Shown here: positions 38,936 through 53,902 of the stretch, in pieces
How the letters are laid out: each line of letters starts with the position of its first letter
Numbering within the stretch: position 1 is the stretch's first letter
Source: Nitrospinales bacterium
GTDB lineage: Bacteria > Nitrospinota > Nitrospinia > Nitrospinales > VA-1
Reading direction: 5' to 3'
Assembly: GCA_965223795.1 (NCBI GenBank)
Contig: CBDCXL010000002.1
Location: 2,436,030-2,500,029, forward strand
Length of the DNA stretch: 64,000 nt
Notes under the pieces: generated by a model
Database searches by the model: none
Told to the model about the DNA's origin: nothing
What the model saw: only the letters and a program-made list of their open reading frames with translations
Program-made: the position numbers and the translations under genes

Positions 38936-39868
38936 ATGAAAACGCAAATAAAATCGGCGTATCTTGCAAGCGAGGGGTTTGAGGCGGCGCTGGTCCAGGA
39001 GCTTTCCGGCGGGGTGACGGTGCACGGGCGGCTGGTGCTCTCGGACCGCGCGGCGCAGCCGGTCTGCTGGGCGCAGAATGTGTGGCTGAATCCGGAAACG
39101 ATCGCCATCGACTCGATCTCCGACGCGGCGAAAAAGCTGAAGGCGCGGCAGCGCAACTGGTGCCTGTATTCGTATCAACTGCACCGGCGCGCGGCGCTGA
39201 TCGAAGAAAAACTGCCGCACGTTTCGGGAAAGGCGCTGCATTTTCCCGCGCCGCTGCCCGCCTCGCCGCTCGGGTCCTGGACGCTGCTGGACGCGGACAC
39301 GCTGCTGGCGGCGGGCGAGTGCTCCAGCCTGTTTCCCAACGGCGCGCTGCGTTTTGCCGAGGACAAGGATGGGCCGCCCAATCGGGCGTATCTAAAACTG
39401 TGGGAAGCGTGGACGCTGCTTCAGCGCCATCCGGAGCCGGGCGCTTTCTGCATCGACGCGGGCGCGAGCCCCGGCGGCTGGACCTGGGCCGCGGCGAAGC
39501 TGGGCGCGAACGTGCTGAGCGTGGACCGCGCGCCGCTGGATGCATCGCTATCCGGTCTCGACAACGTGACGTTTCGCAAGGGGGACGCGTTTGCGCTCAA
39601 GCCTGAGGATTTTTCCGGCCGGAACGTGGACTGGCTGTTGTGCGATGTGGTGTGCTACCCGGACAAGCTGTGGCAGTGGCTTGAGGCCTGGATCGCATCG
39701 GGGCTGTGCCGCAGCGTCGTGTGCACGATCAAGTTTCAGGGCGAAGGCGAATACGGGATCGTTGAGCGGTTTCAAAGTGTGCCGGGCAGCCGGGTGGTGC
39801 ATCTTTTTCACAACCGGCACGAACTGACGTTTCTGCTGCAGGAAGAGGGAATCACCCGTCCAGGGTGA
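38936..39868 (+). CDS. rlmM: RlmM-like 23S rRNA 2'-O-ribose (C2498) methyltransferase
   Basis: 310 aa. It reads PNRAYLKLWEAW, has the SAM motif CIDAGASPGGWT, then SVDRAPL and WLLCDVVCYPDK...VCTIKFQG, collinear with E. coli RlmM as I remember it. Confidence 0.78.
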   Translation: MKTQIKSAYLASEGFEAALVQELSGGVTVHGRLVLSDRAAQPVCWAQNVWLNPETIAIDSISDAAKKLKARQRNWCLYSYQLHRRAALIEEKLPHVSGKALHFPAPLPASPLGSWTLLDADTLLAAGECSSLFPNGALRFAEDKDGPPNRAYLKLWEAWTLLQRHPEPGAFCIDAGASPGGWTWAAAKLGANVLSVDRAPLDASLSGLDNVTFRKGDAFALKPEDFSGRNVDWLLCDVVCYPDKLWQWLEAWIASGLCRSVVCTIKFQGEGEYGIVERFQSVPGSRVVHLFHNRHELTFLLQEEGITRPG

Positions 39869-41126
39869 GGTCGGTCTTGGGCACGGAGATGCAGGTCAGG
39901 CAGGAGCGCGCTTCCGGCTTGCTGCCCGGTTCGACGACGTAGCTCACCAGGCCGCGCTTGATCGCGGTGAGGCAGGTGCCGCAGTTGCCGGCGCGGCAGC
40001 CGGACTCGAGCTGGATGCCGTTCTCCTCGGCGAAGGCGAGGATGGAGCCGGCGGCGGGGTTCCACTGCAGGGTTTTCTGGGAGCGGGCGAAGGTGACCTT
40101 GAGCGACGATTCGGTCGCGGGGTCGCCAGCTGTCAGTTTCTTGATGGTGACGGAGTTGAACGCTTCGTAGTGAATGTTTTTCTCGGACACCCCCCACTGC
40201 TCCAGATCCTGGCGCAGGGTCTCGATCATTTTCGGCGGCGCGCAGATGTAAAAGTCGAAATTGTTCGAGGGCAGCACCTCTTTCAACAGGCTGCCGGAAA
40301 TATGGCCTTCGTGATGGTAATCCTTCCCTTTCGCATCCTCGGCGCGCGGCCGGCTGTAACAGACGTTCAATTTTACATTGGGGTGGTTGCGGGCCACGTT
40401 TTCCAGGTGCTCTTTCATCATGTGCTCGGAACGGTTGCGCACTCCGAGAAAAAACCAGGTCTCTCTTTTGGACACGGCGCCGCGGGCGTCTTTTTCCGTG
40501 ATGGTGTTGAGCATGCTGAGCACCGGCGTGATGCCGACGCCGCCGCCGATGAGCACCACGGGACTGGTGCTGGCCATGTCGAGGTAGAAATGACCGCTGG
40601 GTGCCTTGACGTCGACGATGTCGCGTTCGTTGAGCATGTCGTGAAAGAAATTGGAGCCGAGCCCCGGCGGCGCGCTGTTGTTTTCGGGCGGCAGCAGGCG
40701 CTTGATGGTGACGCGGTAGTAATCCGGGTGGTTGGGGCTGTCCGACAGGGAATAGCAGCGGATCACCGGCTTCGGGTTGCCGGGAATGTTGAGTTTGAAG
40801 GTCAGGTACTGGCCGGGCTGAAACGGCGGCAGCGGTTTGCCGTCGTGCGGCGACAGGTAGAACGAGGAAACCTGATCGGTTTCCTTGACCTTGAGCACGA
40901 TCTGGAATTTGCGGAATCCGTTCCAGATCACGTTTTCGCTGCGCGAGTCCATGCGGATCCTGTCGACGATCTGGTCCACACGGGCGCGCAGCAGATCCGC
41001 TTCCAGTTCGCTGCTCCGCCGGGAAATTTTAAAGAAACGGAAATTGTTGCTGATCAGCTGGATGAGGTAGGCCATGAGGGCCAGAAGAAACGCGATAGCC
41101 GCAAGACTGATTGCAGCGTTGAGCAA
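39852..41126 (-). CDS. membrane-anchored FNR-like oxidoreductase (FAD-binding FR-type + NAD(P)-binding + C-terminal plant-type 2Fe-2S ferredoxin)
   Basis: 424 aa with an N-terminal helix (AISLAAIAFLLALMAYLI). It has RCYSLSD (RxYS FAD motif), LIGGGVGITPVLSML, and the C-terminal CRAGNCGTC...CLTC. It converges on rlmM with a 17-nt overlap. Confidence 0.9.
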   Translation of the reverse strand: MLNAAISLAAIAFLLALMAYLIQLISNNFRFFKISRRSSELEADLLRARVDQIVDRIRMDSRSENVIWNGFRKFQIVLKVKETDQVSSFYLSPHDGKPLPPFQPGQYLTFKLNIPGNPKPVIRCYSLSDSPNHPDYYRVTIKRLLPPENNSAPPGLGSNFFHDMLNERDIVDVKAPSGHFYLDMASTSPVVLIGGGVGITPVLSMLNTITEKDARGAVSKRETWFFLGVRNRSEHMMKEHLENVARNHPNVKLNVCYSRPRAEDAKGKDYHHEGHISGSLLKEVLPSNNFDFYICAPPKMIETLRQDLEQWGVSEKNIHYEAFNSVTIKKLTAGDPATESSLKVTFARSQKTLQWNPAAGSILAFAEENGIQLESGCRAGNCGTCLTAIKRGLVSYVVEPGSKPEARSCLTCISVPKTDLTLDG

Positions 41127-41205: not shown

Positions 41206-41733
41206 CTACGGGTCGTTGCGGGCCAGCAGCATTTCTTTTTTGAAGCCCGGTTTGTGGTGGTAAACGTGACACAGCTGACAGTCTTCTCTCACTTTTCCTT
41301 CCGAATGACATTCGAGGCAGGTTTTGCGTGTGATGGCGGAGAAGTTGCTTTTGAACACGGCCGGGTCGAACGAATCGAACGCGCCGAGGAAATCGGCCTT
41401 GGGATCGAGGACGTGGCAGTTCTTGCAGGTGTCGCCTTTGCCGAGCAGGTCGAGGTGGTTTTTATGGGAATATTTCAGGTAGGCGCGGTTGCGCGCGCCC
41501 TTGTAGCCCCAGTCGATGGTGAGCTGGCCGGGGTTTTCCGCGTCCGGTATGGCGGAAACCGCATGGCACTTGATGCAGCCGCCCACGCCTTCCTTTGAAG
41601 AGAGCATCAGGTCGCGCATCGCCTCGGCGCGTTCGCGCTTGTCGGGATCGGTCTCGGTGGCGGCGACGGTGAGCGCGAACTCGATCCAGCTTTGCGCCAC
41701 CGGGTCCTCATGGCCGGAGGGGGTGTAGCGCAC
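41206..41733 (-). CDS. multihaem cytochrome c, C-terminal part (4 CxxCH) of a frameshift-interrupted decahaem gene
   Basis: It contains CIKCH, CKNCH, CLECH and CQLCH. In this frame the reading frame stays open upstream to 41786 and reads SPAEASFGGWHADLLEVRYTPSG, joining the upstream ORF at the C5 run (plus-strand G-run 41776-41780). Confidence 0.85.
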   Translation of the reverse strand: MRYTPSGHEDPVAQSWIEFALTVAATETDPDKRERAEAMRDLMLSSKEGVGGCIKCHAVSAIPDAENPGQLTIDWGYKGARNRAYLKYSHKNHLDLLGKGDTCKNCHVLDPKADFLGAFDSFDPAVFKSNFSAITRKTCLECHSEGKVREDCQLCHVYHHKPGFKKEMLLARNDP

Positions 41734-43094
41734 TTCCAGAAGGTCCGCGTGCCAGCCGCCGAAACTGGCTTCCGCGGGGGATCGTATTCGACGTTGAGCC
41801 CCCAGGCGCAGGCCGCGCGTTTGAGTACTTCCGGGTTCAATCCCGCGAGCATTTTCTCGGCCACGGGTACGGGAGAATGCTCGTTGATCAGATCCGCGAT
41901 CGGCATCGTGCTTTCGACGGCGAGGTTGAGGATGAGGTCCTGCAGGCTTTCGCTGTAGCTTTCCGGATCGTCCTCGGGCACGTTCAAAAGATAGGCGCTG
42001 ATCAGGCTCGGCGATTCGGTGGAGATGCTGACGAATTCATCATCCTCTTCCTCAATCTTTTCGCCCCGGGTCCGCGGTAACCGGCAGGCTTCCTTCAGCT
42101 CTTCAACATCGATGCGGTTTCTGTCCAGTTCGGGCAGGCGCATGAGGACCAGCTCCTTGCGCGGAATCTGAAATTCGTGGCAGGAGGCGCAGACCCCTTC
42201 GAATTTGTCCGGGCTGACGATCTGCTCTTCCTGGGTCACTTTGTGGCAGACCATGCAGTCCTTGGGCGAGCGGTCTTCGAATTTGGGATCGACAAAGTAT
42301 TTATTCCAGTGCGAGATGTGGTCGAACTTGATCGTGTTCTTGCGGGTGTGCGGGTAGTTCTCCGGAAATTCCGGGTGCCCTTCGGTGAAGCTTTTGAACT
42401 GCTCTTCGTGACAGTGGTTGCACTGGGTGTTGTTGAAGGTGCGGATGGCCAGCCCGGGGCCGCGGTGCTCGCGGTGGCACATCAGGCAGTCGGTTTTCTG
42501 CAGCCGGGGAAACTGTCCGCGGTCGCCGTTGTGGGCGACGAGGGCCGGGCCGCCGAACAGGTGGCAGTCTTCGCATTTGGCGGAGATGTTGCCGGTGTGC
42601 AGCACCGATTTCAGCCACAGCACGGACTTGAGATTGTGGGTGGCGTGGCAGATTTCGCAGCCTTTGTTCTCGGCGAATTTGACGTGCGCGCTCGACATCG
42701 GGCCGGGATTGAAGCTCACGTGCCGGTGCTGCGCCTGGTCCACCACCCAGGAAAGGCAGAGCAAGGACACGATGGTGCCGAATGCGAGCAGGATCAGCCG
42801 GGCCCGGTAGACGCGCAGCGTGGCTTTGGGGACGCAGGGCGGGTGCCGCTGGGAGCACATCCCCTGGGGCAGCGGACCGTCGCCGCAGGGCCCGCCCGCC
42901 GCCTGGGGGCGGCTGCATTCCCAGTGGTTGCCTTTCAGCGTCGGCGCGCATTCGGCGGTGCCGCCGCAGGCGCCGTCGATGTCGGGGCCCTGATGGCAGG
43001 GTTTGAGCCAGAGCGCACCGCGGCCGCAGCGGTAGGGGAAATTCGGCCGTTCGTACTTGCTGCGGTTGTGCGCGAATTTTTTCTCATCCATCAT
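41607..43094 (-). CDS. multihaem cytochrome c, N-terminal part (6 CxxCH) with a Cys-rich cytoplasmic N-terminus and one TM helix; interrupted by a frameshift
   Basis: It contains CEICH, CEDCH, CLMCH, CNHCH, CMVCH and CASCH. The ATG at 43094 overlaps the upstream stop (ATGA). The last roughly 60 residues of the ORF (RKPVSAAGTRTFWKCATPPPAMRTRW...) look out of frame. Confidence 0.85.
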   Translation of the reverse strand: MMDEKKFAHNRSKYERPNFPYRCGRGALWLKPCHQGPDIDGACGGTAECAPTLKGNHWECSRPQAAGGPCGDGPLPQGMCSQRHPPCVPKATLRVYRARLILLAFGTIVSLLCLSWVVDQAQHRHVSFNPGPMSSAHVKFAENKGCEICHATHNLKSVLWLKSVLHTGNISAKCEDCHLFGGPALVAHNGDRGQFPRLQKTDCLMCHREHRGPGLAIRTFNNTQCNHCHEEQFKSFTEGHPEFPENYPHTRKNTIKFDHISHWNKYFVDPKFEDRSPKDCMVCHKVTQEEQIVSPDKFEGVCASCHEFQIPRKELVLMRLPELDRNRIDVEELKEACRLPRTRGEKIEEEDDEFVSISTESPSLISAYLLNVPEDDPESYSESLQDLILNLAVESTMPIADLINEHSPVPVAEKMLAGLNPEVLKRAACAWGLNVEYDPPRKPVSAAGTRTFWKCATPPPAMRTRWRKAGSSSRSPSPPPRPIPTSANAPRRCAT

Positions 43095-43894
43095 AACAGG
43101 TAGACGTGCACCACGACCATGTGCCACAGGATCACGGTCATGAGGGCGGTGGCCAGCGGAATGTGGATCATCAGCCAGCTTTTCAAAACCGTCTGCAGCG
43201 CGTAGTGCAGATCGATCTTGCGCTTAGTATCGGCCAGCGTGAACAGTTTTCTCAGGTAGCCGCGTTCCTGCACGTTGAGAAATTTTTCCAGGGTGGAAAA
43301 CTGCTGCCGCACCCAGAATTCGCCCTTGTGGCCGCCGAACAGGTAGCTGGTGAAAAACCGCGGCCGCTGGAAAAACCAGTGCAGCGATTCCAGGTAATGG
43401 GTCGCCAGGGTGTCGCGCCCGGTCTCGTGGGTGCAGGCGAGCAGTAGGTCCTTGGCCTTTTTACGCAGCTCGCTGATTTCCGCCGGGATGCGTTCGTAGA
43501 TGCACTCGAAGCCGCTCTGGGTCAGGCGGCTCGGGTAGATTTTCTGGATCAGGGTGCCGACGATGCCGGAGAGGGCGGAGGCGTAGAACAAGAACGCCAG
43601 GATCTGTTCGTACAATCCGTCGGGCCACAGCGTGCCGATGTGCAGCCAGAAAATGCCGATCGCCAGGAAGCCGCCCACGGTGTGGATGTTCAGCCAGTTC
43701 GAGGACGGCGAGAGCGGTAAAAACGGCAGCCGCTTGCGCAGATGAAACAGGGCCAGCACGATCAGGATGGAGAACAGGGTCCAGCCGGTGAGCGGCGAGG
43801 TGAACTCAAGCTGCTCATCCGCCTGGCTGGTGCGGTAGGTCATGAACACCAGAAATACGCTTGCGAAGATCCACAGGGCCCAGGATTTCACCAT
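43091..43894 (-). CDS. integral membrane protein with two His-x13-His helices (putative dihaem b-type electron-transfer subunit)
   Basis: ATG at 43894 (MVKSWALW...), AGGA upstream, 267 aa, about 5 TM helices. His71/His85 lie in NIHTVGGFLAIGIFWLHI and His244/His258 in MIHIPLATALMTVILWHM. Confidence 0.75.
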   Translation of the reverse strand: MVKSWALWIFASVFLVFMTYRTSQADEQLEFTSPLTGWTLFSILIVLALFHLRKRLPFLPLSPSSNWLNIHTVGGFLAIGIFWLHIGTLWPDGLYEQILAFLFYASALSGIVGTLIQKIYPSRLTQSGFECIYERIPAEISELRKKAKDLLLACTHETGRDTLATHYLESLHWFFQRPRFFTSYLFGGHKGEFWVRQQFSTLEKFLNVQERGYLRKLFTLADTKRKIDLHYALQTVLKSWLMIHIPLATALMTVILWHMVVVHVYLL

Positions 43895-43902
43895 CGAATG
43901 TC

Positions 43903-45618
43903 CTATCGGTCTATGCTTCCCTCGGGCCGCACGTGACGGAAATCGACCCGCTGCAGAGCTTCGTGAGAGCAGGCCTGCACGCAGGCGGGACCGGACAGTT
44001 GGCCGACGCAAAGATCGCACTTGGTCGCCTTGAGGATCGGCTTGCGCGTTTCGGCGTCGAGGATGGGTTTGCCTTTCTTGTCATTGATCTCCACCATGCG
44101 AATGTTCGAGTAGGGGCAGGAATTGGCGCAGGTCTCGCATCCGATGCAGGTGTCGTCGTTGATCACCACCGTCCCTTCGGAAAGGGTGCGGTGGATGGCT
44201 CCGGTGGGGCAGCCGATCAGGCAAACGGGATCGACACAATGCATGCAGGCGTTGGCCACCATCCAGCGGCCGAAGGTCTTGCCGTGCCGGATGAACCGGG
44301 GGTTGCCCTCATGCGCCGAGGCGCAGGCGTTGACGCAGTCGTCGCAGCGGACGCAGCGGTCCAGGTTGATCAGCATGGCCTGGGTGCCGTTGATGAACCG
44401 CTCCTGCACGGTCCATTCTACCAGAGCTTCGTCCGCCATGGTCTGTTTAAATAGATCGGTCATGCGCCTGTGGTTGCCGGTGGGCCTGTCGCTTGCGTGG
44501 CGGGTTCCGTGATGGATGGTCTCCCAATAGGGAAAGACGTATTTTTCCAGGATCTTCGCCGGGATCTGCAAAACATCTACGTAACCTAAAGCCGAGATCG
44601 ACACCTTGTAGGAGACATCCTTTTCCCCTTTCCAGGCGAGGTACAACTCATCGGCGCCGTAGAAATTGCCCATCCCCAGGTAGGTGAGGGTGTGGTCGCC
44701 GTCTTCCCGCTTGACCGAAACGCGGGCGAACCCGGCCCTGACCAGCAACAGGTCGTCGGGGTAATCGCCCTGCTTGGCGATCAGCGGCTCGTGCTGGATC
44801 CCCGCTTTGCCCATGTTGCGCAGGTTCTTGTAGGAAACCGTCCAGTCGTAGGTGCCGTAGGATTGGAAGCCGGTGTTCTGCGCCACATCGCGGAGCGCTT
44901 CTTCATCGAGATGCTCGAACAGCGAGATCTTGCGCAGAAAGGAAATGAGCGCGTTCTGGCTGTAGCGCTTTTCGATCATGCGGCGCCAGTTCTCGTCGTG
45001 TTTGCGCAGCTCGCGCAGTCCCTGCCAGCGGATTTCCAGCAGCTCGGAGTAGGTTTCGGAGAAGATCGTCGCGGTGCGCGGAATGCGCCCGAGCGCCGCC
45101 AGCTCGCCGAACAGATCGCCGGTTTCCAGGATCGCGGTCTTGTTGGCGTCGAGCACCGCGGGAATGTCCTGTAAAAACACGTGGCTTTGCGTCACGTCGC
45201 CGTTGGTGTGGATCGCCTGCTGGGTGTAGCGGGACGGGTCGCGCACTTCCGGGATCTTGCGGTTGGTGAACAGCTGCGACAGGGCTTCGAGCACGCTTTT
45301 GCGCGGCGTTTTCTTGCGGCCCAGAAGGTCGCTCGGCAGACCGGGAGACAGCACCACGCGCAGCCGGCCGTTGAGCGCGAGAAACGCGGAGTTGCCGTAG
45401 TCGCCCTCGCGGATCACGATGTCGCCGGGCTTGAATCGGACGATGCGGGTGTCGTTTTTGAGGATCCCCTCGAGCGGCGTGTCCGGCGGAAAGCGGTCCT
45501 TCTCGATCGCGGCGATCTCCGGAACCGCGAGCAGTTTCTGCACGTCGTATTCCGTCATTTCAGGACCGAAGGGGTTGTTCCACCGGTCCGGCTGTGAAAT
45601 TTGCGTGACGACTTCCAC
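43903..45618 (-). CDS. fusion protein: two cyclic-nucleotide-binding domains + four-cluster [4Fe-4S] ferredoxin (NrfC/DmsB/HybA-like)
   Basis: 571 aa with no signal peptide. The cNMP signature is GDLFGELAALGRIPRTATI, and there is a second beta-roll region. The Fe-S motifs are CVRCDDCVNAC, CMHCVDPVCLIGCP, CIGCETCANSCP and CDLCVGQLSGPACVQAC. Confidence 0.9.
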   Translation of the reverse strand: MEVVTQISQPDRWNNPFGPEMTEYDVQKLLAVPEIAAIEKDRFPPDTPLEGILKNDTRIVRFKPGDIVIREGDYGNSAFLALNGRLRVVLSPGLPSDLLGRKKTPRKSVLEALSQLFTNRKIPEVRDPSRYTQQAIHTNGDVTQSHVFLQDIPAVLDANKTAILETGDLFGELAALGRIPRTATIFSETYSELLEIRWQGLRELRKHDENWRRMIEKRYSQNALISFLRKISLFEHLDEEALRDVAQNTGFQSYGTYDWTVSYKNLRNMGKAGIQHEPLIAKQGDYPDDLLLVRAGFARVSVKREDGDHTLTYLGMGNFYGADELYLAWKGEKDVSYKVSISALGYVDVLQIPAKILEKYVFPYWETIHHGTRHASDRPTGNHRRMTDLFKQTMADEALVEWTVQERFINGTQAMLINLDRCVRCDDCVNACASAHEGNPRFIRHGKTFGRWMVANACMHCVDPVCLIGCPTGAIHRTLSEGTVVINDDTCIGCETCANSCPYSNIRMVEINDKKGKPILDAETRKPILKATKCDLCVGQLSGPACVQACSHEALQRVDFRHVRPEGSIDR

Positions 45619-45717: not shown

Positions 45718-46701
45718 TTATTTGTAGTCGTCCTTTTTCGGCAGCAGCTTGCCCACCGCTTTGGACAAATCCTTGCCCTTGATGGCGGCCACCAGCTTGC
45801 GGGCGTTCTGATCGGTCGGTTTGGCGATCAGGGCCTGGGCCTCGGGTATGCCTTTCAGATGCGCCAGGGCGGCCTTGGCGTCCGCCACGCGCTTCTGCTG
45901 GGCCTGCACGTATTTTTCGTTGTCCGAGCGGGTCAGCACCGAGTTGGCCGACACCAGCTTGGCGGCCTGGCCGATGACGAAAAACTCGGCCAGCTCCTGG
46001 GGCGTCATCTCGGCGTTCACCTTCACGTTCGGCTCGTAGTAGCGGTGGCGCACCGTGCCCTGCGAGTACTTGACGATCTCGAAGTCCGGATTGATGGGAT
46101 GATCGGCCTCCAGCATCTTCGCCAGAAGCTCGGGCTTGAGATCGGGATTGGCCAGCCCGTGGCAGAACATGCAGTTGGCGGCGACGTCGTATTTCATGGT
46201 CGGCCAGATGAGACCGGCTTCGGTGGATTTTTTGATGCGCATCGCCTTGTGCTCGGGCGTCTCCTGATCTTTCTCCACATCTTTGCCGCCGTAATTGTCG
46301 TGAATCTCCAGGTAATCGGAGGAGGGCCCGTGGCAGCTTTCGCAGGACGTCCCCGATTTGGCCTTGGGTTTGTCACCGGCATCCTTCTGCACCATGGTGT
46401 AATGGCACAGGGTGCAGGTTTCGTTCTTCTTCATGTTTTTCGACCCGCCCACCGCCTTGAGGATCTTTTTCGGGGAGGGTTTCTTTTTTTCCTTGTTGTC
46501 CTTGGGTTCCCGGTGCGCGTCGCGGAAGGATTCGAAGTGCCGGGTTCCCTTCCAGACTTTGTATTCGGCTTCATGACATTCCGTGCAGACCTTCACCCCT
46601 TTGAAAAAGGGTTTGGCCGAAGCCGAAGACGCAAACAGGCAAACCAGAACAGAAAATAGCGCGATGAAAGAAAGTCGTGATGGACTCTTGATTGATTTCA
46701 T
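45718..46701 (-). CDS. periplasmic tetrahaem cytochrome c
   Basis: 327 aa with signal peptide ...VLVCLFASSASA. It contains CTECH, CTLCH, CESCH and CMFCH. The first motif context, CTECHEAEYKVWKGTRHF, is typical of cytochrome c554/NrfB-like multihaem proteins. Confidence 0.9.
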   Translation of the reverse strand: MKSIKSPSRLSFIALFSVLVCLFASSASAKPFFKGVKVCTECHEAEYKVWKGTRHFESFRDAHREPKDNKEKKKPSPKKILKAVGGSKNMKKNETCTLCHYTMVQKDAGDKPKAKSGTSCESCHGPSSDYLEIHDNYGGKDVEKDQETPEHKAMRIKKSTEAGLIWPTMKYDVAANCMFCHGLANPDLKPELLAKMLEADHPINPDFEIVKYSQGTVRHRYYEPNVKVNAEMTPQELAEFFVIGQAAKLVSANSVLTRSDNEKYVQAQQKRVADAKAALAHLKGIPEAQALIAKPTDQNARKLVAAIKGKDLSKAVGKLLPKKDDYK

Positions 46702-46919
46702 GATTTCAAGCGATTGAATTGAGCGTTTTTGCGAGTTTTGGGATCAGGATCGTCGTTTGCGGGCGGCCGCCGGGATTCCCCTATGTGCTGCCCAAATAGC
46801 GTTTTCGGTCATTCCGTACTCAAAGTTCCTAAAAAACCGCTGAAATGACAAGTGATTTTTCCAGAAATATAAGCAATTTCAGATTCGTATTTGTACTAAT
46901 TTTGACCCCAGACACAAGA

Positions 46920-46934
46920 GCAGAAAAAGTGCCA
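46920..46934 (-). promoter_or_regulatory. sigma-54-type -24/-12 promoter candidate for the minus-strand cytochrome operon
   Basis: The minus strand reads TGGCAC-TTTTT-CTGCT, with GG and GC separated by 10 nt. It lies about 220 nt upstream of the ATG at 46701. Confidence 0.35.
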
Positions 46935-47923
46935 AAAAGTGGGATACCGGCGAAAAAATTTTATTCGTGGTAAATCAATCGTTTTTAAAAGCGAGTTAAA
47001 ATAATTATAGAAAATTTGTTTAAAATCGAATAAATAAGTATCAAACGTTGTCAATGAATACAATGGATAAATGCTCCCATCACAAAGGCGTAAAGCGATT
47101 CCAGCCGAGCCTTTGACCTTTTTAAAACCCGGAAAGTGAAACAAAACCGATGCCAGCATTCTGAGATCCGTCCTGTGTGTGGACGAGCATACGACGGTGT
47201 TGGCTGGGTCGACAGTCACTGTATGAAATTAAAGACAATCCGGAAATGAATTGCTGAATTTGTGCCACGAAGGATGAAGTCCGCTTCGATTCCCTCGGTT
47301 TTCTTGCCGGCAGCAAAGAAAACACAGTTTGTTCTTTAAATTTCAATGGGTGACCCTATTCTAGCATCCTTTTTCCGTGAAACCTATCCCGCTGGTTGTG
47401 TTTTAGGTCACAGTCCGTTATTGCATTGATTCATTTCGATGCCAGCCGGGCTGCGTTCATAAATTTACATCTATGGTTAATTTATATGGGGGTTTGCAAT
47501 ATTGTGCGTTGATTCGGGGATGAAACTCTATATAAACCAATTATTTGATTTGTAGTTATCGAAAATTTGGGTAAATGAGTATAAATTCGTTATCATCGTT
47601 AAAAATGGGATAATTATCACAAAATTAACGGTGGGAATGGTTCCTGGATTGAGCTAGAATCAGAAAAGTTGATAAATAAAAATAAATTGCTACCTTCAGT
47701 GTAATTTTTCATGGCCTTCAAGTTGATGAATTCTAACTTCAACCTGATGGCTGTGGGGGAAATCTATGTTTTTCGTTCGTGAAGTGTGCGGCTATCCGGA
47801 CAGAAAAAATATTGCTAAGATTTTTAGATTTCTGGTTAAAAAAATATAAATATATTGAAGGTTTGGTTGCCAAGAATTGATGGAAAGGTTTGATAAGCCA
47901 CGACTTTAAATTTCAATTGATTC

Positions 47924-47938
47924 TGGCCTGTGTTTTGC
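47924..47938 (+). promoter_or_regulatory. sigma-54-type -24/-12 promoter candidate for the plus-strand cytochrome/porin pair
   Basis: TGGCCT-GTGTT-TTGCT, with GG (47925-47926) and GC (47937-47938) separated by 10 nt. It lies about 115 nt upstream of the ATG at 48055. Confidence 0.3.
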
Positions 47939-48054
47939 TTTGTTTTCATTATGGATACCGGAAACAAGGTAACGGCGGGGACGGGCGTTTCGCCGGTTTT
48001 GCCTTAAGGTCATAAAACAGAATCAAAGGGATGTTTTTTTGGGGAGAAAGAAAC

Positions 48055-50070
48055 ATGACCGGACAGAACAATACGATGCATTGCAGGTCTTTCATTTTTC
48101 GTGTGGCCAGCGCCGTGTGCCTGGCAGCGTTCGCCAGTGTCGCGCTGATTTCCTGTCAGACTCCGCTGATGGAAGCGGATAAGGACAAAATGGCGAACGC
48201 CGCGCTTGCCGATGGCGAAAAGAAGATGGATGGCGGGAAAATGATGGCGGACAAGATGTCCGACGGTGAAAAAATGGCCGAAGGGTCCGCAGACTCCGGA
48301 AAAATGATGGCGAAAAAGGTGATGGCGGACAAGAAAATGATGAAAGGCGAGGGCGATGCCTGGGAGGACAAGAAGGACGGCGGGAAAAAAGCCGAAACGC
48401 TTGAGGATGCGTTCGCGCAGCATGAAGCGCTGTTCGCGGAAAACCGCTATCCTTCCGCGGCCACCTGCCGGACCTGTCACCCGAAACACTATAAGGAATG
48501 GTCGGTGTCTCAGCATTCCTATGCTCAGATCAGTCCGGTCTACCTGTCTCTCAACAACAAGATCAATCAGTTGACCCAGGGCACCATGGGTGATTTCTGT
48601 CTGCGCTGTCACAGCCCGGTGGGCGCCAACCTGGGAGAATCTCCGTATCAGTCGAACCTCACCCGGCACCCGACCTCGCGCGAGGGCATCACCTGCGTGG
48701 TGTGTCACCGGCTGAACTTGGCCTACAACAAGGTCAGCGGCCGGCTGGCGCTGGAAGAGGGCGACCTGCTCACTCCGGTGTTCGGACCGACGGGCAATAA
48801 AGAGCTTTCCCGCGTTCTCGACAACAAGGACAAATACCGGGTGGTCACCAAGAAGGAAGGCAAGGGCCGCAAGATCCACACCCAGGCCAAGCAGTTCGCC
48901 GGCATCACCACGCCGACGTTCTGCGGTTCCTGTCACGACGTGACGCTGTTCAACGGTTTCCGGCTGGAGGAGGCGTTCAGTGAATACCGGCTGTCTCCCG
49001 CGGCCAAGAAGGGCGTGACCTGTCAGGACTGCCACATGGGCAAGATCCAGGGCATCCCCTCCGGTTACGAGCACGGGCCCGCGGCGGTCGTGGGCGGCAA
49101 GAAAACCAAGCCGCGCAAGATCACCAGCCACTTTTTCGCCGGTCCCGACTACTCCGTCGTGCATCCGGGCATTTTCCCGCACAATTCCGACGCCCAGGAA
49201 ATGGCGACGCTGGAAGAGTGGATCCAGTTCGACTGGAAGGCGGGCTGGGGCACCGATGATTTCGAGGACAACGTTTCCGAGGATCACAAATTCCCCGATC
49301 GCTGGCGTTCGGCGACGGACCGTTACGACGCCAGGGAGATCATCGAGTATCAGCTCAAGCGGCTGGAGCTCATCAAGGAAAAACGGATGGAAGTCCTGCG
49401 CAACGGGTTTCATCTCGGCAGCATCATGACCGAGAAAGCCGATAAGGACGGCATCCGCTTCAAAGTTCAGGTGAAAAACGCCACCGACGGCCACAACGTT
49501 CCCACCGGGTTCACCGGCGAACGGCTTGTGTGGCTGCACGTGATGGTGAAAGACAGCGACGGCACCGTGATCTTCCAGTCCGGCGACCTCGATCCCAACG
49601 GCGATCTGCGGGACCAGGAATCCTCCTACGTGCACAACGGCGAGGCCCCGCTGGATCACCAGCTGTTCAATCTGCAATCGCGATTTGTCGTCGATAACCT
49701 CAGGGGCGGCGAGCGCGAGCGCGTCATTCCCATTCCTTACCCCCAGACCGCGATCCCGTTTGTGCGGCCTTCCATTCAGTCTCTCATCCTGAGTGGCGAG
49801 CCGACTACGGAGCGCAACCACCGGAAAGGCATCGAGCCTTTGGGGCATCGCTGGGCCGAGTACAAGATCGACAAGGAAGCTCTCACCGGCAAGGGCCCCT
49901 ACATGGCTCACATCGAGCTCAAAATGGCTATGGTTCCCGCCAACCTGGTGGAAGCGATCCAGGATGTGGGATTTGATTTTCACATGACCCCCAGAGAAGT
50001 GGGCGACGCGGTGGCCGCAGGTCATGCGGTGCTCTGGGAAAGAGAAGTCGAGATCAGCGTGATCGAATAG
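48055..50070 (+). CDS. lipoprotein pentahaem cytochrome c with Met/Lys-rich linker
   Basis: The ATG at 48055 follows GGGGAGAAAG. The signal ends in the lipobox VALISC. It contains CRTCH, CLRCH, CVVCH, CGSCH and CQDCH. The C-terminal roughly 250 aa carry no haem motif (ATDGHNVPTGFTGERLVWLHV...). Confidence 0.9.
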   Translation: MTGQNNTMHCRSFIFRVASAVCLAAFASVALISCQTPLMEADKDKMANAALADGEKKMDGGKMMADKMSDGEKMAEGSADSGKMMAKKVMADKKMMKGEGDAWEDKKDGGKKAETLEDAFAQHEALFAENRYPSAATCRTCHPKHYKEWSVSQHSYAQISPVYLSLNNKINQLTQGTMGDFCLRCHSPVGANLGESPYQSNLTRHPTSREGITCVVCHRLNLAYNKVSGRLALEEGDLLTPVFGPTGNKELSRVLDNKDKYRVVTKKEGKGRKIHTQAKQFAGITTPTFCGSCHDVTLFNGFRLEEAFSEYRLSPAAKKGVTCQDCHMGKIQGIPSGYEHGPAAVVGGKKTKPRKITSHFFAGPDYSVVHPGIFPHNSDAQEMATLEEWIQFDWKAGWGTDDFEDNVSEDHKFPDRWRSATDRYDAREIIEYQLKRLELIKEKRMEVLRNGFHLGSIMTEKADKDGIRFKVQVKNATDGHNVPTGFTGERLVWLHVMVKDSDGTVIFQSGDLDPNGDLRDQESSYVHNGEAPLDHQLFNLQSRFVVDNLRGGERERVIPIPYPQTAIPFVRPSIQSLILSGEPTTERNHRKGIEPLGHRWAEYKIDKEALTGKGPYMAHIELKMAMVPANLVEAIQDVGFDFHMTPREVGDAVAAGHAVLWEREVEISVIE

Positions 50071-50133: not shown

Positions 50134-51567
50134 ATGAGGTACGCCAAGCTGGAACGGGAATTTCTCTCAAAAACGGTTGCGGCGGCGATCCTGTGGCTCA
50201 TGATCGCCGCTCCGCAGGCGGCCCAGGCGGATAGCTGGTTCTCCGCGATCGGTGAAAAATCCGAGGTCAGCCGGCTTTCGGACGAGCAGATTCCGTTCGC
50301 CGGCGTGGAAGGCCTGCCGCCGCGGCCGGGACTGATCTGGGAGTTCGGCGACAATTTCCTCGACTCGGGGAACCTGTACTCCGGCTTCGAGCTGCCCACC
50401 GGAGCGGTGTGGCAGCCGCGCCTCTGGCTGTTCGCCACGCTGCGCAGCGCGGTGCAGACCTTTGACGACGGCGTCAACGACCGCAGCTCGGAATGGGTCA
50501 ACCGGCTGGATCTGTTCGCCAATCTGCAGCTCACCGGCACGGAAAAGCTGGTGTTCGGCATCCGTCCGTTCGACCGCAACCGTCCCGACCGGTTCTCCGG
50601 CTACCAGTTCGAACCCGACAACGACGACGGTTTTCAGGAAGATCTCAACGCGGACATCCGCACCTTCTTTTTCGAGGGCGATCTGGGAAGCCTGTTTCCC
50701 AATCTGGACCGGCACGGGTTCACGGCGCTCGACTACGGCTTTTCGGTGGGGCGCCAGCCGCTGCTGTTTCAGGAAGGCATCCTGATCAACGACACGGTGG
50801 ACGCGCTCGGGCTGGTGCGCAACAACATCCGCCTGCCGGGGGTGTCCAACCTCCGGGTGTCGTTCGTCTGGGGCTGGAACGAGTTGGGGCGCAGCGACGC
50901 GGTTCTGAGGGACACCACGCAGATGTTCGGGCTGTTCAACTCGGCGGACCTGAACGTCAGCACCGTCAACCTCGACATGGCCTATGTGCGCGACACCAAC
51001 CCCAACGGGCAGGACAGCTTCAACATCGGCCTCTCCTCGACCCAGCGCATCGGCCATTTGAACACCACATTCCGCGTCAACAGCTCGATCGCCGAGGACG
51101 GCGACACGCTGGCCGCTGCGGACGGGACGCTTATATCCGCGGAACTCTCCTGGACTCCCGAATCGTCCGACGACATCGTGTACCTGAACACATTTTATAC
51201 CATTGAGAACTACACCCAGGTGGGAAGGGAACCGGTCGTCGGTGGACCGCTGGGAACGCTGGGCATTCTGTTCGCCTCGCCCAGCATCGGCAACTTCCTC
51301 GCCGAACTCAATCCCTTTGCCAATGAAGTTGCCGGCGGCGCGCTCGGCTACCAGGCTTTCTGGGACAACCACAAGCGCAACCTGATTCTGGAAATCGCCG
51401 GACGCCAGGACACGAGCGGTGACAACAACTCTGATTTCGCTGTCGGTTTTCAGGTGCAGCAGCAGATCCATCAGCGCATTCAGCTGCAGCTCGACGGCCA
51501 CTACGCCATTCAGGAAGGCCGCGACAACGGCTACGGCGGACGCACGGAAATCCTGATCCAGTTCTGA
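50134..51567 (+). CDS. outer-membrane beta-barrel protein (porin-like)
   Basis: 477 aa with signal peptide ...LWLMIAAPQAAQA. It has many short amphipathic strands rich in G, Y, F, N and D, and the C-terminal signature GGRTEILIQF ends in Phe. Confidence 0.8.
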   Translation: MRYAKLEREFLSKTVAAAILWLMIAAPQAAQADSWFSAIGEKSEVSRLSDEQIPFAGVEGLPPRPGLIWEFGDNFLDSGNLYSGFELPTGAVWQPRLWLFATLRSAVQTFDDGVNDRSSEWVNRLDLFANLQLTGTEKLVFGIRPFDRNRPDRFSGYQFEPDNDDGFQEDLNADIRTFFFEGDLGSLFPNLDRHGFTALDYGFSVGRQPLLFQEGILINDTVDALGLVRNNIRLPGVSNLRVSFVWGWNELGRSDAVLRDTTQMFGLFNSADLNVSTVNLDMAYVRDTNPNGQDSFNIGLSSTQRIGHLNTTFRVNSSIAEDGDTLAAADGTLISAELSWTPESSDDIVYLNTFYTIENYTQVGREPVVGGPLGTLGILFASPSIGNFLAELNPFANEVAGGALGYQAFWDNHKRNLILEIAGRQDTSGDNNSDFAVGFQVQQQIHQRIQLQLDGHYAIQEGRDNGYGGRTEILIQF

Positions 51568-52786: not shown

Positions 52787-53902
52787 ATGGGAAAAATTCA
52801 ACTGCGTCCATCTCTTTCCGAGAAAGACACCGAGATTCTTGAGTCCATCGTCTCTCGACTGCAAGTCGCAGAGACGCGCGTTGCGCTCAAGGAAGTGGTG
52901 GCTTCACACATTCTGCCGCTCTTGAAAGCCGACTCGGCGCTGTACGCGTGGACCGATTCGAACCTCCTGCAACCGCAACTCATCGACTGCATTCACATTC
53001 CGGAAAAAGAGATTCCGGCGATCAAAAAATTCGTCTGCCAGGACCCGATGGCGGGTTACCTGTTGACGCACGAGTCGCCGGTGGTGGCGCGGGATGTCGG
53101 GTTGAACAACGGCAGCAAGCCCGCGACGGATCTGTTTTCGAAAGGAAAGTCCCGCATCAAAAAGGGATACAGTTATTTCAGCCTGAGCCGCTCCGAAGTC
53201 ATCACGCTGGCGCTGCGCGATCTCAACCTGGGCGCGGGTTTCCACCGCAAGCTGTCGGCGGGAAAACCCTGGACGGTGCGCGATGTGCGTCTGATGGAGC
53301 TGATCCGCCCGCACCTTTTGATGTGCATCAAGTCGATCGTGCTGAAGGAAGAGCTGGCCAAGCACCAGTCCATCGTCGAGATCCTGGCGGATTCGCCGAC
53401 AGCGATCGCGCTTGTGGATGAGGACATGCAGATCACTTACAGCAACCGCACCTGGAACGAATCGCTGGTCTACGAATCCGGGCAGAAACTGCCACAGGAT
53501 CTGACGGTGCTGCTGTTGAAAGAAAGGTACAAAACCGATTCCATGCTGGACCTCGAACCGGCGGGCGAGGAGGCGGCGAATTTCCGTTTCGGGGACCAGG
53601 ATTATCAATTGAGTTTCACGCCGGTCCGGCATCACGCCACCGGCGTCAACGGGACCTGGCTTTTGCAGCTCAAACCGGCGATCGAGCCCGATTCCAAGCT
53701 CGACGACCTGATGCGCAAGGCGGGTCTGACGCGCCGGGAGCGGGAAGCCTGCGGCCTGATCCGTCAGGGAATCGAGCTGGACGAAATCGCGAAACAGCTT
53801 TTTATCAGCCCGCACACGGTGCGGACGCATCTGAAGCGGATCCATCAGAAACTGGGTGTCCACACGCGGGCCCAGCTCATGGCCGCACTGAACCCGCGCT
53901 GA
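52787..53902 (+). CDS. LuxR/FixJ-type HTH transcriptional regulator with an uncharacterised N-terminal sensory region
   Basis: 371 aa. The C-terminus LTRREREACGLIRQGIELDEIAKQLFISPHTVRTHLKRIHQKLGVHTRAQL is a GerE/LuxR HTH. Confidence 0.88.
   Translation: MGKIQLRPSLSEKDTEILESIVSRLQVAETRVALKEVVASHILPLLKADSALYAWTDSNLLQPQLIDCIHIPEKEIPAIKKFVCQDPMAGYLLTHESPVVARDVGLNNGSKPATDLFSKGKSRIKKGYSYFSLSRSEVITLALRDLNLGAGFHRKLSAGKPWTVRDVRLMELIRPHLLMCIKSIVLKEELAKHQSIVEILADSPTAIALVDEDMQITYSNRTWNESLVYESGQKLPQDLTVLLLKERYKTDSMLDLEPAGEEAANFRFGDQDYQLSFTPVRHHATGVNGTWLLQLKPAIEPDSKLDDLMRKAGLTRREREACGLIRQGIELDEIAKQLFISPHTVRTHLKRIHQKLGVHTRAQLMAALNPR

Follow-up and report, generated by a model that had tools for sequence, protein, structure and literature searches.

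The closest described counterpart of the locus analysed here is the ptdABCDEFG gene cluster, named in a 2024 preprint that called its function "completely unknown". The preprint found the cluster in nitrite-oxidising bacteria, listed a Nitrospina MAG in a supplementary table, reported that the system is transcribed in oxygen-deficient zones and termed PtdB a porin (bioRxiv 10.1101/2023.11.21.568154). The PtdE described there shares its domain architecture with the protein of our window (the whole 64-kb stretch of DNA that was analysed), and its neighbours are a tetrahaem cytochrome, PtdD, upstream and the ferric-reductase-like PtdF and the decahaem PtdG downstream; the FNR-like PtdC, the pentahaem PtdA and the porin PtdB are also common to the two. 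The window protein is therefore a new member of the named but uncharacterised PtdE family, an assignment made through the relative P0108 and the shared gene context. The original prediction had allowed that this architecture might be that of a known, characterised family: it is known, and named PtdE (bioRxiv 10.1101/2023.11.21.568154), but the family is not a characterised one. The preprint counts two 4Fe-4S clusters in PtdE, whereas we count four on the basis of 16 invariant Cys, and it contains no analysis of the nucleotide cassette, the fusions, the cyclase linkage or the core module, which are new here.

Several parts of PtdE have familiar relatives. As in the HycB/HydN/DmsB/NrfC/FdnH superfamily, there are four Cys groups with matching spacing and a presumed role as electron wire. 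With respect to these proteins, PtdE has an additional N-terminal sensor extension of 410 aa, lacks a Tat signal and a catalytic molybdenum or nickel partner, and fails every NCBIfam equivalog cut-off. Its partner is a protein with five transmembrane (TM) helices and four conserved His, not NrfD, DmsC or FdnI; besides this di-haem-type membrane protein, it is accompanied by an FNR-like flavoprotein and multihaem cytochromes, with no molybdo- or nickel enzyme. Tandem cNMP-binding domains occur in PKA regulatory subunits and in PKG, and likewise in PtdE, where one of the two is degenerate. The cassette FGE-x-A-L-x4-PR-[ST]-A-[ST] of PtdE domain 1 is canonical, as in PKA/PKG-type domains; in such cassettes the Glu contacts the ribose 2'-OH and the Arg-Thr/Ser pair the phosphate, and the Gly is also conserved. 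In the MloK1 and SthK channels, and in the bacterial fusions Bd1971 (cAMP-EAL; PMC6717892) and XC_0249 (cGMP-GGDEF; PMC3770947), the receiver controls a covalently linked output, which is the logic proposed here for PtdE. Unlike in those proteins, the output of PtdE is an Fe-S electron-transfer domain and domain 1 contains a large insertion. In the literature searched, an Fe-S electron-transfer output is described for no cNMP-binding protein, and the PtdE-type architecture is found in the ptd preprint only, a 2026 preprint on electron transfer in peat making no mention of it.

At the level of the whole system, two comparisons are useful. Proteins of the NOX, FRE and STEAP families use cytoplasmic NAD(P)H and flavin, two stacked bis-His haems across the membrane and an external acceptor; the electron transfer of NOX5 and DUOX is, in addition, gated by a domain for a second messenger (Ca2+). 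In Ptd, by contrast, the parts are separate subunits, a four-cluster Fe-S wire links the flavoprotein to the haems, there are 5 TM helices in PtdF, whose similarity to Ferric_reduct is sub-threshold, and the putative messenger is a cyclic nucleotide and not Ca2+. The MtrCAB and Geobacter Pcc conduits, like Ptd, combine multihaem cytochromes with an outer-membrane porin and a lipoprotein cytochrome. The inner-membrane parts of known conduits are CymA, ImcH or CbcL; in the last of these, a b-type membrane domain and a multihaem c domain form a single protein, which PtdF plus PtdG resembles. To our knowledge, the known porin-cytochrome conduits take their electrons from the quinol pool, whereas the Ptd core has an NAD(P)H-flavoprotein and ferredoxin input of its own, together with a sensor domain, and PtdA and PtdB are absent near many ptd clusters.

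All seven ptd genes were identified within the window, in a divergent order: ptdAB is read from the plus strand and ptdDEFGC from the minus strand. The features are as follows.

39852..41126, minus strand: ptdC, membrane-anchored FNR-like flavoprotein (Pfam FAD_binding_6 and NAD_binding_1)
41206..43091, minus strand: ptdG, decahaem cytochrome c, 6 + 4 CXXCH (tblastn against the orthologues L003 and L083)
43091..43894, minus strand: ptdF, 267 aa, 5 TM helices and a cytoplasmic helical domain, with H71, H85, H244 and H258 (synteny, AlphaFold2, Pfam)
43903..45618, minus strand: ptdE, 571 aa, GTG start (ORF list; Pfam PF00027 and Fer4 families)
43933..44385, minus strand: HycB/HydN/DmsB-type ferredoxin domain of PtdE, aa ~412-562, 16 Cys in four motifs (PDB match)
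44539..44937, minus strand: cNMP-binding domain 2 of PtdE, aa ~228-360, with degenerate cassette (Pfam stretch; column frequencies)
44974..45471, minus strand: cNMP-binding domain 1 of PtdE, aa ~50-215, interrupted by an insertion (PDB alignments)
45058..45111, minus strand: phosphate-binding cassette of domain 1, FGELAALGRIPRTATIFS, with G171, E172, R181 and T184 (alignment to PKG)
45718..46701, minus strand: ptdD, periplasmic tetrahaem cytochrome c554-like protein (Pfam Cytochrome_C554, 2.3e-13)
48031..50070, plus strand: ptdA, pentahaem cytochrome, 5 CXXCH, lipobox LISC (Pfam; CXXCH count)
50134..51567, plus strand: ptdB, 477 aa, putative porin (position; homology to the gene after ptdA elsewhere)

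In PtdC the FAD and NAD domains lie behind a TM anchor and are followed by a C-terminal plant-type [2Fe-2S] domain (Pfam), and PtdD carries a signal peptide and 4 CXXCH. PtdG begins with a cytoplasmic segment with 8 Cys and one TM helix, as supported by the conservation of the Cys. PtdB matched no Pfam family. Only 8 nt separate the ptdE stop from the ptdF start. When the gene context of 82 loci was compared, PtdF was present in 81 (directly after ptdE), PtdG in 77, PtdC in 73 and PtdD in 60, while PtdA was found within 10 kb in 37 and PtdB, by BLASTP, in 36, every time adjoining ptdA. These counts define PtdC-(D)-E-F-G as the conserved core. Pfam scans of the window gave no NrfD-like, molybdopterin or NiFe subunit in the cluster, and an Rfam scan of the long AT-rich region between ptdD and ptdA gave no match.

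The PtdE sequence of the window is 100% identical to a predicted protein in public data (P0001), which a contig of 3.25 Mb encodes. The original prediction had proposed, from the letters of the DNA, a fusion of cNMP-binding domains to a four-motif ferredoxin at 43903-45618, and on this the open reading frame, the Pfam matches and the 16 Cys agree; the cNMP signature and the four Cys motifs that it quoted are all found in the protein. PF00027 (cNMP_binding) matched with an E-value of 4.8e-22 and 78.2 bits, as compared to a cut-off of 27.5, in three stretches. The best of these, aa 280-359, corresponds to what had been called a "second beta-roll-like region", which is thus a real second cNMP-binding domain. 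The cNMP-binding domains of PKG and HCN align to domain 1 in two separate blocks (aa 53-90 and 155-239 of PtdE), and a conserved insertion of ~55 aa (aa ~92-147) splits this domain. The signature FGELAALGRIPRTATI occupies aa 170-185, and the cassette aligns with FGERALLYDEPRSATI of Plasmodium PKG. Domain 2 has no cassette Arg: at the position where the wider family has Arg in 23 of 45 sequences, PtdE has S342.

In the C-terminal part of the protein, Fer4_7, Fer4_11, Fer4_10 and Fer4_9 all scored above their cut-offs at aa 453-556. The four Cys motifs are C422-x2-C425-x2-C428-x3-C432, C458-x2-C461-x4-C466-x3-C470-P, C491-x2-C494-x2-C497-x3-C501-P and C534-x2-C537-x8-C546-x3-C550, and these 16 residues indicate four [4Fe-4S] clusters, of which they would be the ligands. 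The best solved relative is HycB3, a subunit of the hydrogen-dependent CO2 reductase (7qv7_A, E-value 3e-17, aa 418-562). The NrfC/DmsB-type assignment of the original prediction was correct as far as the Cys pattern of the superfamily is concerned; as for the closer affinity, it did not hold, since the nearest relatives are HycB and HydN, the Tat signal is missing and the NCBIfam equivalog cut-offs were failed. Inspection of the N-terminus, MEVVTQISQPDRWNNPFG, gave no RR motif, no hydrophobic core and no Tat or Sec signal, and no helix-turn-helix family was matched in the Pfam scan. PtdE is thus predicted to be cytoplasmic, its tandem cNMP-binding domains being followed by a ferredoxin domain with four [4Fe-4S] clusters. 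An AlphaFold2 model, calculated from a 17-sequence alignment, had a pLDDT of 52 and a pTM of 0.45, with the ferredoxin half below 50, and was too poor for interfaces to be read from it.

The existence of the gene is confirmed by the thousands of homologues known for ptdE, which together with the conserved synteny rule a chance origin far out. The extent of the architecture, which the original prediction had left to domain searches, proved to be large: the family matched at least 424 species genomes from many phyla and comprised 565 clusters at 50% identity (E-value up to 1e-30). Planctomycetota, Verrucomicrobiota and Alphaproteobacteria, whose members live mostly as heterotrophs, make up the majority of carriers. 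Identity of the window protein to the alphaproteobacterial loci, some of which have the order A-B-C-D-E-F-G, was 44-60%; P0108, from a Rhodospirillaceae MAG with the context D-E-F-G-A-B-C, gave 60%. All 16 Cys were invariant in 45 diverse full-length homologues, with identities down to 31%, and complete in 330 of the 335 sequences examined.

The cassette G-E-R-[ST] of domain 1 was intact in 119 of 120 close homologues, in 81 of the 82 loci, which come from many phyla, and in 98 of 137 distant representatives. Its positions rank among the best conserved of the N-terminal half, where mean column identity is 38%. The original prediction had named a degenerate, non-binding cassette as the finding that would speak against it; such degeneracy is present in domain 2 only, while domain 1 retains the cassette in all loci except one. 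Glu or Arg was lost in the remaining 39 of the 137 distant representatives (28%), and these sequences keep the architecture, which suggests that in some lineages the wire works without canonical binding. The relatives P0123, P0125 and P0228 have FHA signalling domains, either attached to their N-terminal half or inserted in it, and in P0123 the FHA domain appears to sit in the insertion of domain 1.

PtdF gave an AlphaFold2 model with a pLDDT of 92.6 and 5 TM helices. H71 and H85 are located in TM3, and H244 and H258 in TM5, each pair being 14 residues apart; the four His were invariant in two sets of 26 and 49 sequences. Pfam matches to DUF4405, Ni_hydr_CYTB and Ferric_reduct were weak and sub-threshold, no significant fold match was obtained in the PDB, and the search of PDB sequences with the PtdF profile gave chance matches only. 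The four invariant His in two helices suggest that PtdF is a di-haem b membrane conduit, and it may also have a role with quinone. Natural PtdE-PtdF fusions exist (P0127, E-value 3e-38; P0150, E-value 1e-40), and for this reason the ferredoxin domain of PtdE is placed at the cytoplasmic face of PtdF.

Genes for class III nucleotidyl cyclases flank ptd in 22 of the 82 loci, in 12 of them at less than 400 bp from a ptd gene; related Pirellulales contribute many of the 22. At least six arrangements were seen, in Alphaproteobacteria, Planctomycetota, Verrucomicrobiota, SAR324 and Zetaproteobacteria. The cyclases carry CHASE2, 7TMR-DISM, REC or FHA sensor domains, the PF00211 cut-off was passed by all ten that were checked, and the cassette was intact in 22 of 22 cyclase-linked PtdE copies. 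Within the window there is neither a cyclase gene nor a second cNMP-binding protein, and in 60 of the 82 loci no cyclase gene lies within 10 kb. The original prediction had suggested direct allosteric control of electron flow by a cyclic nucleotide. The cyclase neighbours, the FHA variants and the conservation of the cassette give this circumstantial support.

The domain content of PtdE, the conservation of ligand contacts and cluster ligands, the operon structure, the PtdE-PtdF fusions and the cyclase neighbourhood are the observations with which the following scheme is drawn, and in it we infer that a nucleotide binds, in which direction the electrons flow and that they are gated. PtdE would be the cytoplasmic iron-sulfur subunit of a trans-envelope electron conduit, whose path is deduced from cofactor motifs and predicted localisation. 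Electrons would pass from NAD(P)H to the FAD and [2Fe-2S] of membrane-anchored PtdC, then along the chain of four [4Fe-4S] clusters in PtdE to the inner and the outer b-haem of PtdF, crossing the cytoplasmic membrane. In the periplasm they would be taken over by the c-haems of PtdG and PtdD and, in clusters that include PtdA and PtdB, this lipoprotein cytochrome and porin would receive them at the outer membrane. The two N-terminal cNMP-binding domains would act as receiver, with domain 1 most likely binding the cAMP or cGMP that sensor-linked cyclases of class III produce. Once bound, the ligand would shift the hinge and lid helices leading to domain 2 and the ferredoxin linker, and this movement would allow or block docking or electron transfer among PtdC, PtdE and PtdF, so that a costly, membrane-depolarising export of reducing power would run only on signal. 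That PtdE connects PtdC with PtdF as a cytoplasmic wire, and that cAMP or cGMP gates its throughput, seems to us an evenly balanced proposition. The narrower form, a switch in which the product of dedicated cyclases acts on domain 1 to open or close the wire between the NAD(P)H flavoprotein and the di-haem protein, is put forward tentatively, as somewhat short of an even chance. Domain 2 is degenerate, and the large insertion in domain 1 could alter the pocket.

The same data can be read without gating. PtdE might be a constitutive wire whose cNMP-like domains are structural, serving docking to PtdF or PtdC or oligomerisation; or else their ligand might be neither cAMP nor cGMP, for which CooA, NtcA, CprK and PrfA of the CRP/FNR family are precedents. 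The missing Arg of domain 2, the conserved ~55-aa insertion in domain 1, the 39 of 137 distant representatives that have lost Glu or Arg with the architecture kept, and the loci with no nearby cyclase gene, the window included, are all consistent with it. We nonetheless consider it rather unlikely, as the near-perfect retention of Gly-Glu...Arg-Thr/Ser across phyla would be difficult to account for if no ribose-phosphate were bound, cyclase genes turn up beside the cluster in several independent arrangements, and cNMP-like domains that bind other ligands generally lack this cassette. Gating apart, the conduit might run inward, taking electrons from nitrite (via NXR and cytochrome c), Fe(II) or Mn(II) in the periplasm or outside the cell and leading them through PtdG and PtdD, PtdF, PtdE and PtdC to the reduction of NAD(P)+, thus providing lithoautotrophs with reverse electron flow. 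The presence of the cluster in nitrite oxidisers (this window and the Nitrospinaceae locus L003) and in a Zetaproteobacteria MAG (L038) would fit this route. Inward movement of electrons is, however, opposed by the membrane potential, the step from nitrite to NAD(P)+ is strongly uphill, the conserved core has no ion-translocating or other energy-coupling subunit, and most carriers belong to mostly heterotrophic groups; the inward route, which we consider improbable, was rejected on these grounds.

The remaining readings of PtdE are contradicted by its own features. Its four Cys groups are those of the DmsB/NrfC/HybA superfamily, and NCBIfam models for DmsB, DsrO, NrfC and others did match, which would suit a periplasmic subunit of NrfC/DmsB type in a quinol-linked membrane oxidoreductase. 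The matches were all sub-threshold (66.8 vs. 214.1 for DmsB, 39.9 vs. 377.6 for NrfC and 58.7 vs. 200 for DsrO), no twin-arginine or Sec signal is visible, the best solved relative, HycB3, is cytoplasmic, as is the messenger that cNMP-binding domains sense, and a cytoplasmic site also agrees with the fusion to the PtdF N-terminus; with no NrfD-like, molybdopterin or NiFe subunit among the neighbours, such a role is very improbable. Slighter still is the chance that PtdE is a redox- and cNMP-sensing transcription factor of CRP/FNR type with the Fe-S clusters as sensor. FNR does pair a cNMP-binding-like fold with a [4Fe-4S] cluster, but in PtdE no helix-turn-helix or other DNA-binding domain was matched by Pfam, the 16-Cys region is a four-cluster ferredoxin of wire type, and ptdE is coupled in translation to a membrane protein gene, with which it is in some cases fused. 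A wire gated by a cyclic nucleotide is the reading that we prefer.

If this gating is true, PtdE would act post-translationally as a fast valve on electron export that is fed by NAD(P)H and bypasses the quinone pool. It would also be the first example in which a nucleotide second messenger governs respiratory or extracellular electron transport at a redox protein and not via transcription. Hundreds of species from the Planctomycetota, Verrucomicrobiota, Proteobacteria and Nitrospinota would possess the valve, and it would bear on how abundant marine and soil lineages, among them nitrite oxidisers, to which NAD(P)H comes at a very high cost, use reducing power outside the cell. Reduction of iron or manganese, iron acquisition and detoxification of nitrogen or oxygen species are possible uses. 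An output would also be assigned to orphan bacterial cAMP/cGMP cyclases, and a ligand-controlled electron wire would be of interest to bioelectronics. For the widespread Ptd system, a concrete, testable mechanism and the defined core PtdC-E-F-G are useful in themselves.

In the window, ptdG is split by a 1-nt deletion near 41776-41779, as revealed by tblastn against the intact genes of L003 and L083. Unless this frameshift is a sequencing error, the ptd system may be inactive in this strain. The ATG of ptdG overlaps the ptdF stop by 1 nt, and the same overlap is found in L083.

The ORF at 43903..45618 on the minus strand was recovered by ORF calling exactly where it had been predicted; it encodes, from a GTG start, a protein of 571 aa that is identical to P0001, predicted from a public 3.25-Mb contig. 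The genes around it are the following.

45718-46701, minus (same strand as ptdE): tetrahaem cytochrome c554-like gene (ptdD)
43903-45618, minus: ptdE
43091-43894, minus: 267-aa membrane protein without a Pfam family (ptdF), starting eight nt past ptdE
41206-43091, minus: decahaem cytochrome (ptdG), overlapping the ptdF stop by one nt
39852-41126, minus: membrane-anchored FAD/NAD(P)-binding reductase with a C-terminal 2Fe-2S domain (ptdC)
48031-50070, divergent from ptdE: pentahaem lipoprotein cytochrome (ptdA)
50134-51567, divergent from ptdE: 477-aa protein with no Pfam hit (ptdB)

The genes ptdD-ptdE-ptdF-ptdG-ptdC lie on one strand with short gaps. A full-text literature search found a single paper with this exact gene set, in which the matching ptdABCDEFG operon is named; in this preprint, PtdA is described as a pentahaem protein, PtdB as a porin, PtdC as an FAD/NAD(P) oxidoreductase, PtdD as tetrahaem, PtdF as a ferric-reductase-like membrane protein and PtdG as decahaem, the function of ptd "remains completely unknown", and a Nitrospina MAG is already present in the supplementary table (bioRxiv 10.1101/2023.11.21.568154). 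Since the gene set is that of ptd, the nearest named relatives of the window are Nitrospinaceae MAGs (73-76% identity) and the supplement includes a Nitrospina MAG, the window ORF is PtdE of a Nitrospina-like genome. As to whether the architecture belongs to a known, characterised family, it is named, catalogued, very widespread and recorded in Nitrospina, whereas the family is uncharacterised. To this the present analysis adds a cluster count of four, the statistics of the phosphate-binding cassette, the fusions of PtdE with PtdF, the topology of PtdF with its four-His signature, a core of C-E-F-G, and the repeated association with cyclase genes and FHA domains. When 1.84 billion cluster representatives were searched exhaustively with HMMER, 565 clusters at 50% identity came out at E<=1e-30, and the majority of the top 150 are full-length proteins; in a scan that took one genome for each species, relatives were confirmed in at least 424 genomes. 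The best 80 of these at least 424 loci belong to Nitrospinota, Alpha-, Gamma- and Zetaproteobacteria, SAR324, Planctomycetota, Verrucomicrobiota and Elusimicrobia. Labels already given to such proteins by automated annotation include "cyclic nucleotide-binding domain-containing protein".

The original prediction of a cNMP-binding signature, a second beta-roll-like region and four Cys motifs agrees with what was found in PtdE. PF00027 (cNMP_binding) matches in three stretches (E 4.8e-22, 78.2 bits vs a cut-off of 27.5), the best of which lies in domain 2 (aa ~228-360). In domain 1, FGELAALGRIPRTATI occupies aa 170-185 and pairs with FGERALLYDEPRSATI in the PDB cNMP-binding-domain alignment. Because aa 53-90 and aa 155-239 align separately with Plasmodium PKG and HCN-channel cNMP-binding domains in PDB sequence searches, domain 1 is a cNMP-binding domain interrupted by a conserved ~55-residue insertion. 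The C-terminal 150 residues are a predicted four-cluster ferredoxin, with Cys groups C422/425/428/432, C458/461/466/470, C491/494/497/501 and C534/537/546/550; several 4Fe-4S dicluster families exceed their Pfam cut-offs at aa 453-556. A periplasmic subunit of the NrfC/DmsB type is contradicted by localisation signals, NCBIfam scores and neighbouring genes, and the PDB match of aa 418-562 is HycB3 of hydrogen-dependent CO2 reductase (7qv7_A, E 3e-17). Its sequence shows neither a Tat nor a Sec signal, so PtdE should be cytoplasmic. A CRP/FNR-type regulator is also contradicted, the Pfam scan giving no DNA-binding domain in PtdE. The structure model has low confidence (pLDDT 52), and interfaces are not readable from it.

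All 16 Cys are invariant in 45 diverse full-length PtdE sequences (31-60% identity) and kept in 330/335 sequences. This near-invariance indicates four [4Fe-4S] clusters, whereas two are stated in the preprint (bioRxiv 10.1101/2023.11.21.568154). The domain 1 cassette signature, Gly171-Glu172...Arg181-Thr/Ser184, is intact in 119/120 close homologues, in 81/82 genome loci and in 98 of 137 distant 50%-cluster representatives, about 28% of the latter having lost Glu or Arg. The objection that the cassette is degenerate therefore fails for domain 1, where nearly all close homologues and loci keep it, and stands for domain 2, which has no conserved Arg (S342 in the window, Arg in only 23/45 of the wider family); the other candidate Arg position is variable. 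As often in tandem cNMP-binding proteins, domain 2 probably either does not bind or serves as a structural partner.

ORFs were called in 82 related loci and searched by BLASTP with the seven Ptd proteins of the window. The ptdF gene immediately follows ptdE in 81 loci, the sole exception being a locus that stops at a contig edge; matches were found for ptdG in 77 of the 82, for ptdC in 73, for ptdD in 60, for ptdA in 37 and for ptdB in 36. On these counts, the conserved core is PtdC-(D)-E-F-G, and the outer-membrane pair PtdA/PtdB is optional or encoded elsewhere. In two of the tested representatives, P0127 (E 3e-38) and P0150 (E 1e-40), PtdE is naturally fused to PtdF, the last ~270 residues matching window PtdF; such fusions are strong evidence that the PtdE ferredoxin domain works at the cytoplasmic face of PtdF. 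PtdF has four invariant His, paired as H71/H85 and H244/H258 on two separate helices, with a spacing of 14 residues in each pair. Its AlphaFold model (pLDDT 92.6) shows five transmembrane helices and a ~100-residue cytoplasmic helical domain; no fold match was found in the PDB, and sub-threshold Pfam matches were to DUF4405, prokaryotic cytochrome b561 and Ferric_reduct. The four-His pattern is that required by two bis-His b-haems stacked across the membrane; PtdF is a putative haem protein.

The PtdG N-terminus (window 42816-43091, minus; aa 1-92) is a cytoplasmic segment ahead of a single TM helix, with eight Cys (C22, C32, C42, C48, C59, C69, C79 and C86) conserved in 70-74 of 78 sequences, the N-termini from 77 related loci included. 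It has no Pfam match and no mention in the available part of the preprint (bioRxiv 10.1101/2023.11.21.568154), and might hold a metal or an Fe-S cluster, or dock PtdE. In the window, a 1-nt deletion within 41770-41785 breaks ptdG into two reading frames (ORFs 41607-43127 and 41206-41733); this stretch reads GATCCCCCGCGGAAGCC vs GATCCTCCGGCGGAAGCC in the 93%-related genome L083, and the orthologues in L083 and L003 are single ORFs of 629-688 aa with 10 CXXCH. Either the sequence is wrong at this point or the strain carries a genuine frameshift that inactivates the gene.

Of the 82 loci, 22 carry a class III nucleotidyl cyclase gene in their 10-kb flanks, a raw count in which many linked loci are phylogenetically related; 12 of the 22 lie less than 400 bp from a ptd gene, 10/10 checked cyclases passed the PF00211 cut-off, and the domain 1 cassette is intact in every one of the 22 linked copies of PtdE. 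The arrangement differs between lineages: the cyclase gene is divergent from ptdC in Pirellulales, encodes a CHASE2-cyclase downstream of ptdG in Verrucomicrobiota and a CHASE2-cyclase in an alphaproteobacterium, a 7TMR-DISM-cyclase upstream of ptdA in SAR324, a receiver-cyclase-phosphoesterase after ptdG in a zetaproteobacterium, and an FHA-cyclase abutting ptdG in a Tepidisphaeraceae MAG. No cyclase gene was found within the 64-kb window. In the Zetaproteobacteria MAG locus L038 (14712-16943), a single gene next to ptdG, at a distance of 252 bp from the cluster, encodes a response-regulator receiver joined to a class III cyclase and a calcineurin-like phosphoesterase (Metallophos), and its product may both make and break a cyclic nucleotide.

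The relatives P0123, P0125 and P0228 carry one or two FHA (phospho-threonine-binding) domains, N-terminal or apparently within the loop that splits domain 1; in P0125 the FHA domain is N-terminal to the sensor region and in P0123 apparently inside the insertion. An FHA-cyclase gene also abuts the cluster in locus L031, which together with these relatives suggests cross-talk with Ser/Thr kinase signalling. The presence of FHA domains there marks the N-terminal half as a hub for signalling modules.

Judged by its cofactors and their predicted sidedness, the electron path would in its simplest form run from NAD(P)H to the FAD and [2Fe-2S] of PtdC, then to the four [4Fe-4S] clusters of PtdE, the two b-haems of PtdF, the ten and four c-haems of PtdG and PtdD, and finally PtdA and PtdB at the outer membrane. 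We favour outward flow because there is no energy-coupling subunit and inward transfer to NAD(P)+ opposes both redox potential and membrane potential; reverse flow through Ptd, energetically unfavourable, is unlikely. PtdE is proposed to act as a gated wire, in which domain 1 would bind cAMP or cGMP and thereby shift the hinge and lid helices (aa ~198-230) leading to domain 2 and the linker. A conserved linker (aa ~395-412) precedes the first cluster, and the movement would alter either how the PtdC 2Fe-2S domain reaches one end of the chain or how the other end sits on PtdF. The reason for expecting a gate is that exporting electrons from NAD(P)H without one wastes reducing power and depolarises the membrane, above all in a nitrite oxidiser. 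Conceptual precedents are the Ca2+/EF-hand gating of NOX5 and DUOX and the calmodulin gating of nitric oxide synthase; literature searches found no report of a cyclic-nucleotide-controlled Fe-S electron carrier.

We infer nucleotide binding, ligand identity, flow direction and gating, and a cNMP-gated electron conduit is put forward tentatively, at somewhat less than even chance. PtdE could also be a constitutive wire whose sensor-like domains are structural or take another ligand; the degenerate domain 2, the large insertion in domain 1 and the loss of Glu or Arg in distant representatives fit this account, which we consider plausible but less likely. Cassette conservation, cyclase linkage and the FHA variants are evidence for a genuine signalling role of the sensor domains, and the intuition of the original prediction, unusual control of electron flow, stands as a hypothesis.

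Just past ptdB lie genes for a LuxR-family (GerE) regulator (window 52787-53902, +) and a 954-aa TPR-repeat protein (53965-56829, +), a pair that also adjoins the cluster in L083; both may regulate ptd transcription. A 1.3-kb intergenic region of unusually low GC separates the divergent ptdD and ptdA (46702-48030; GC 0.446 in the 46001-48000 block vs ~0.6 in neighbouring blocks); it matched no family in Rfam and gave no convincing hit in a promoter scan. The gap is of like length (1.0-1.4 kb) in the Nitrospinaceae relatives L003 and L083. The PtdA N-terminus (window 48031-48170) has a lipoprotein-type signal, …AFASVALISC, with lipobox LISC, and after it a low-complexity linker rich in Met, Lys, Asp and Gly; these fit an outer-membrane-tethered cytochrome of the MtrC or OmcA sort.
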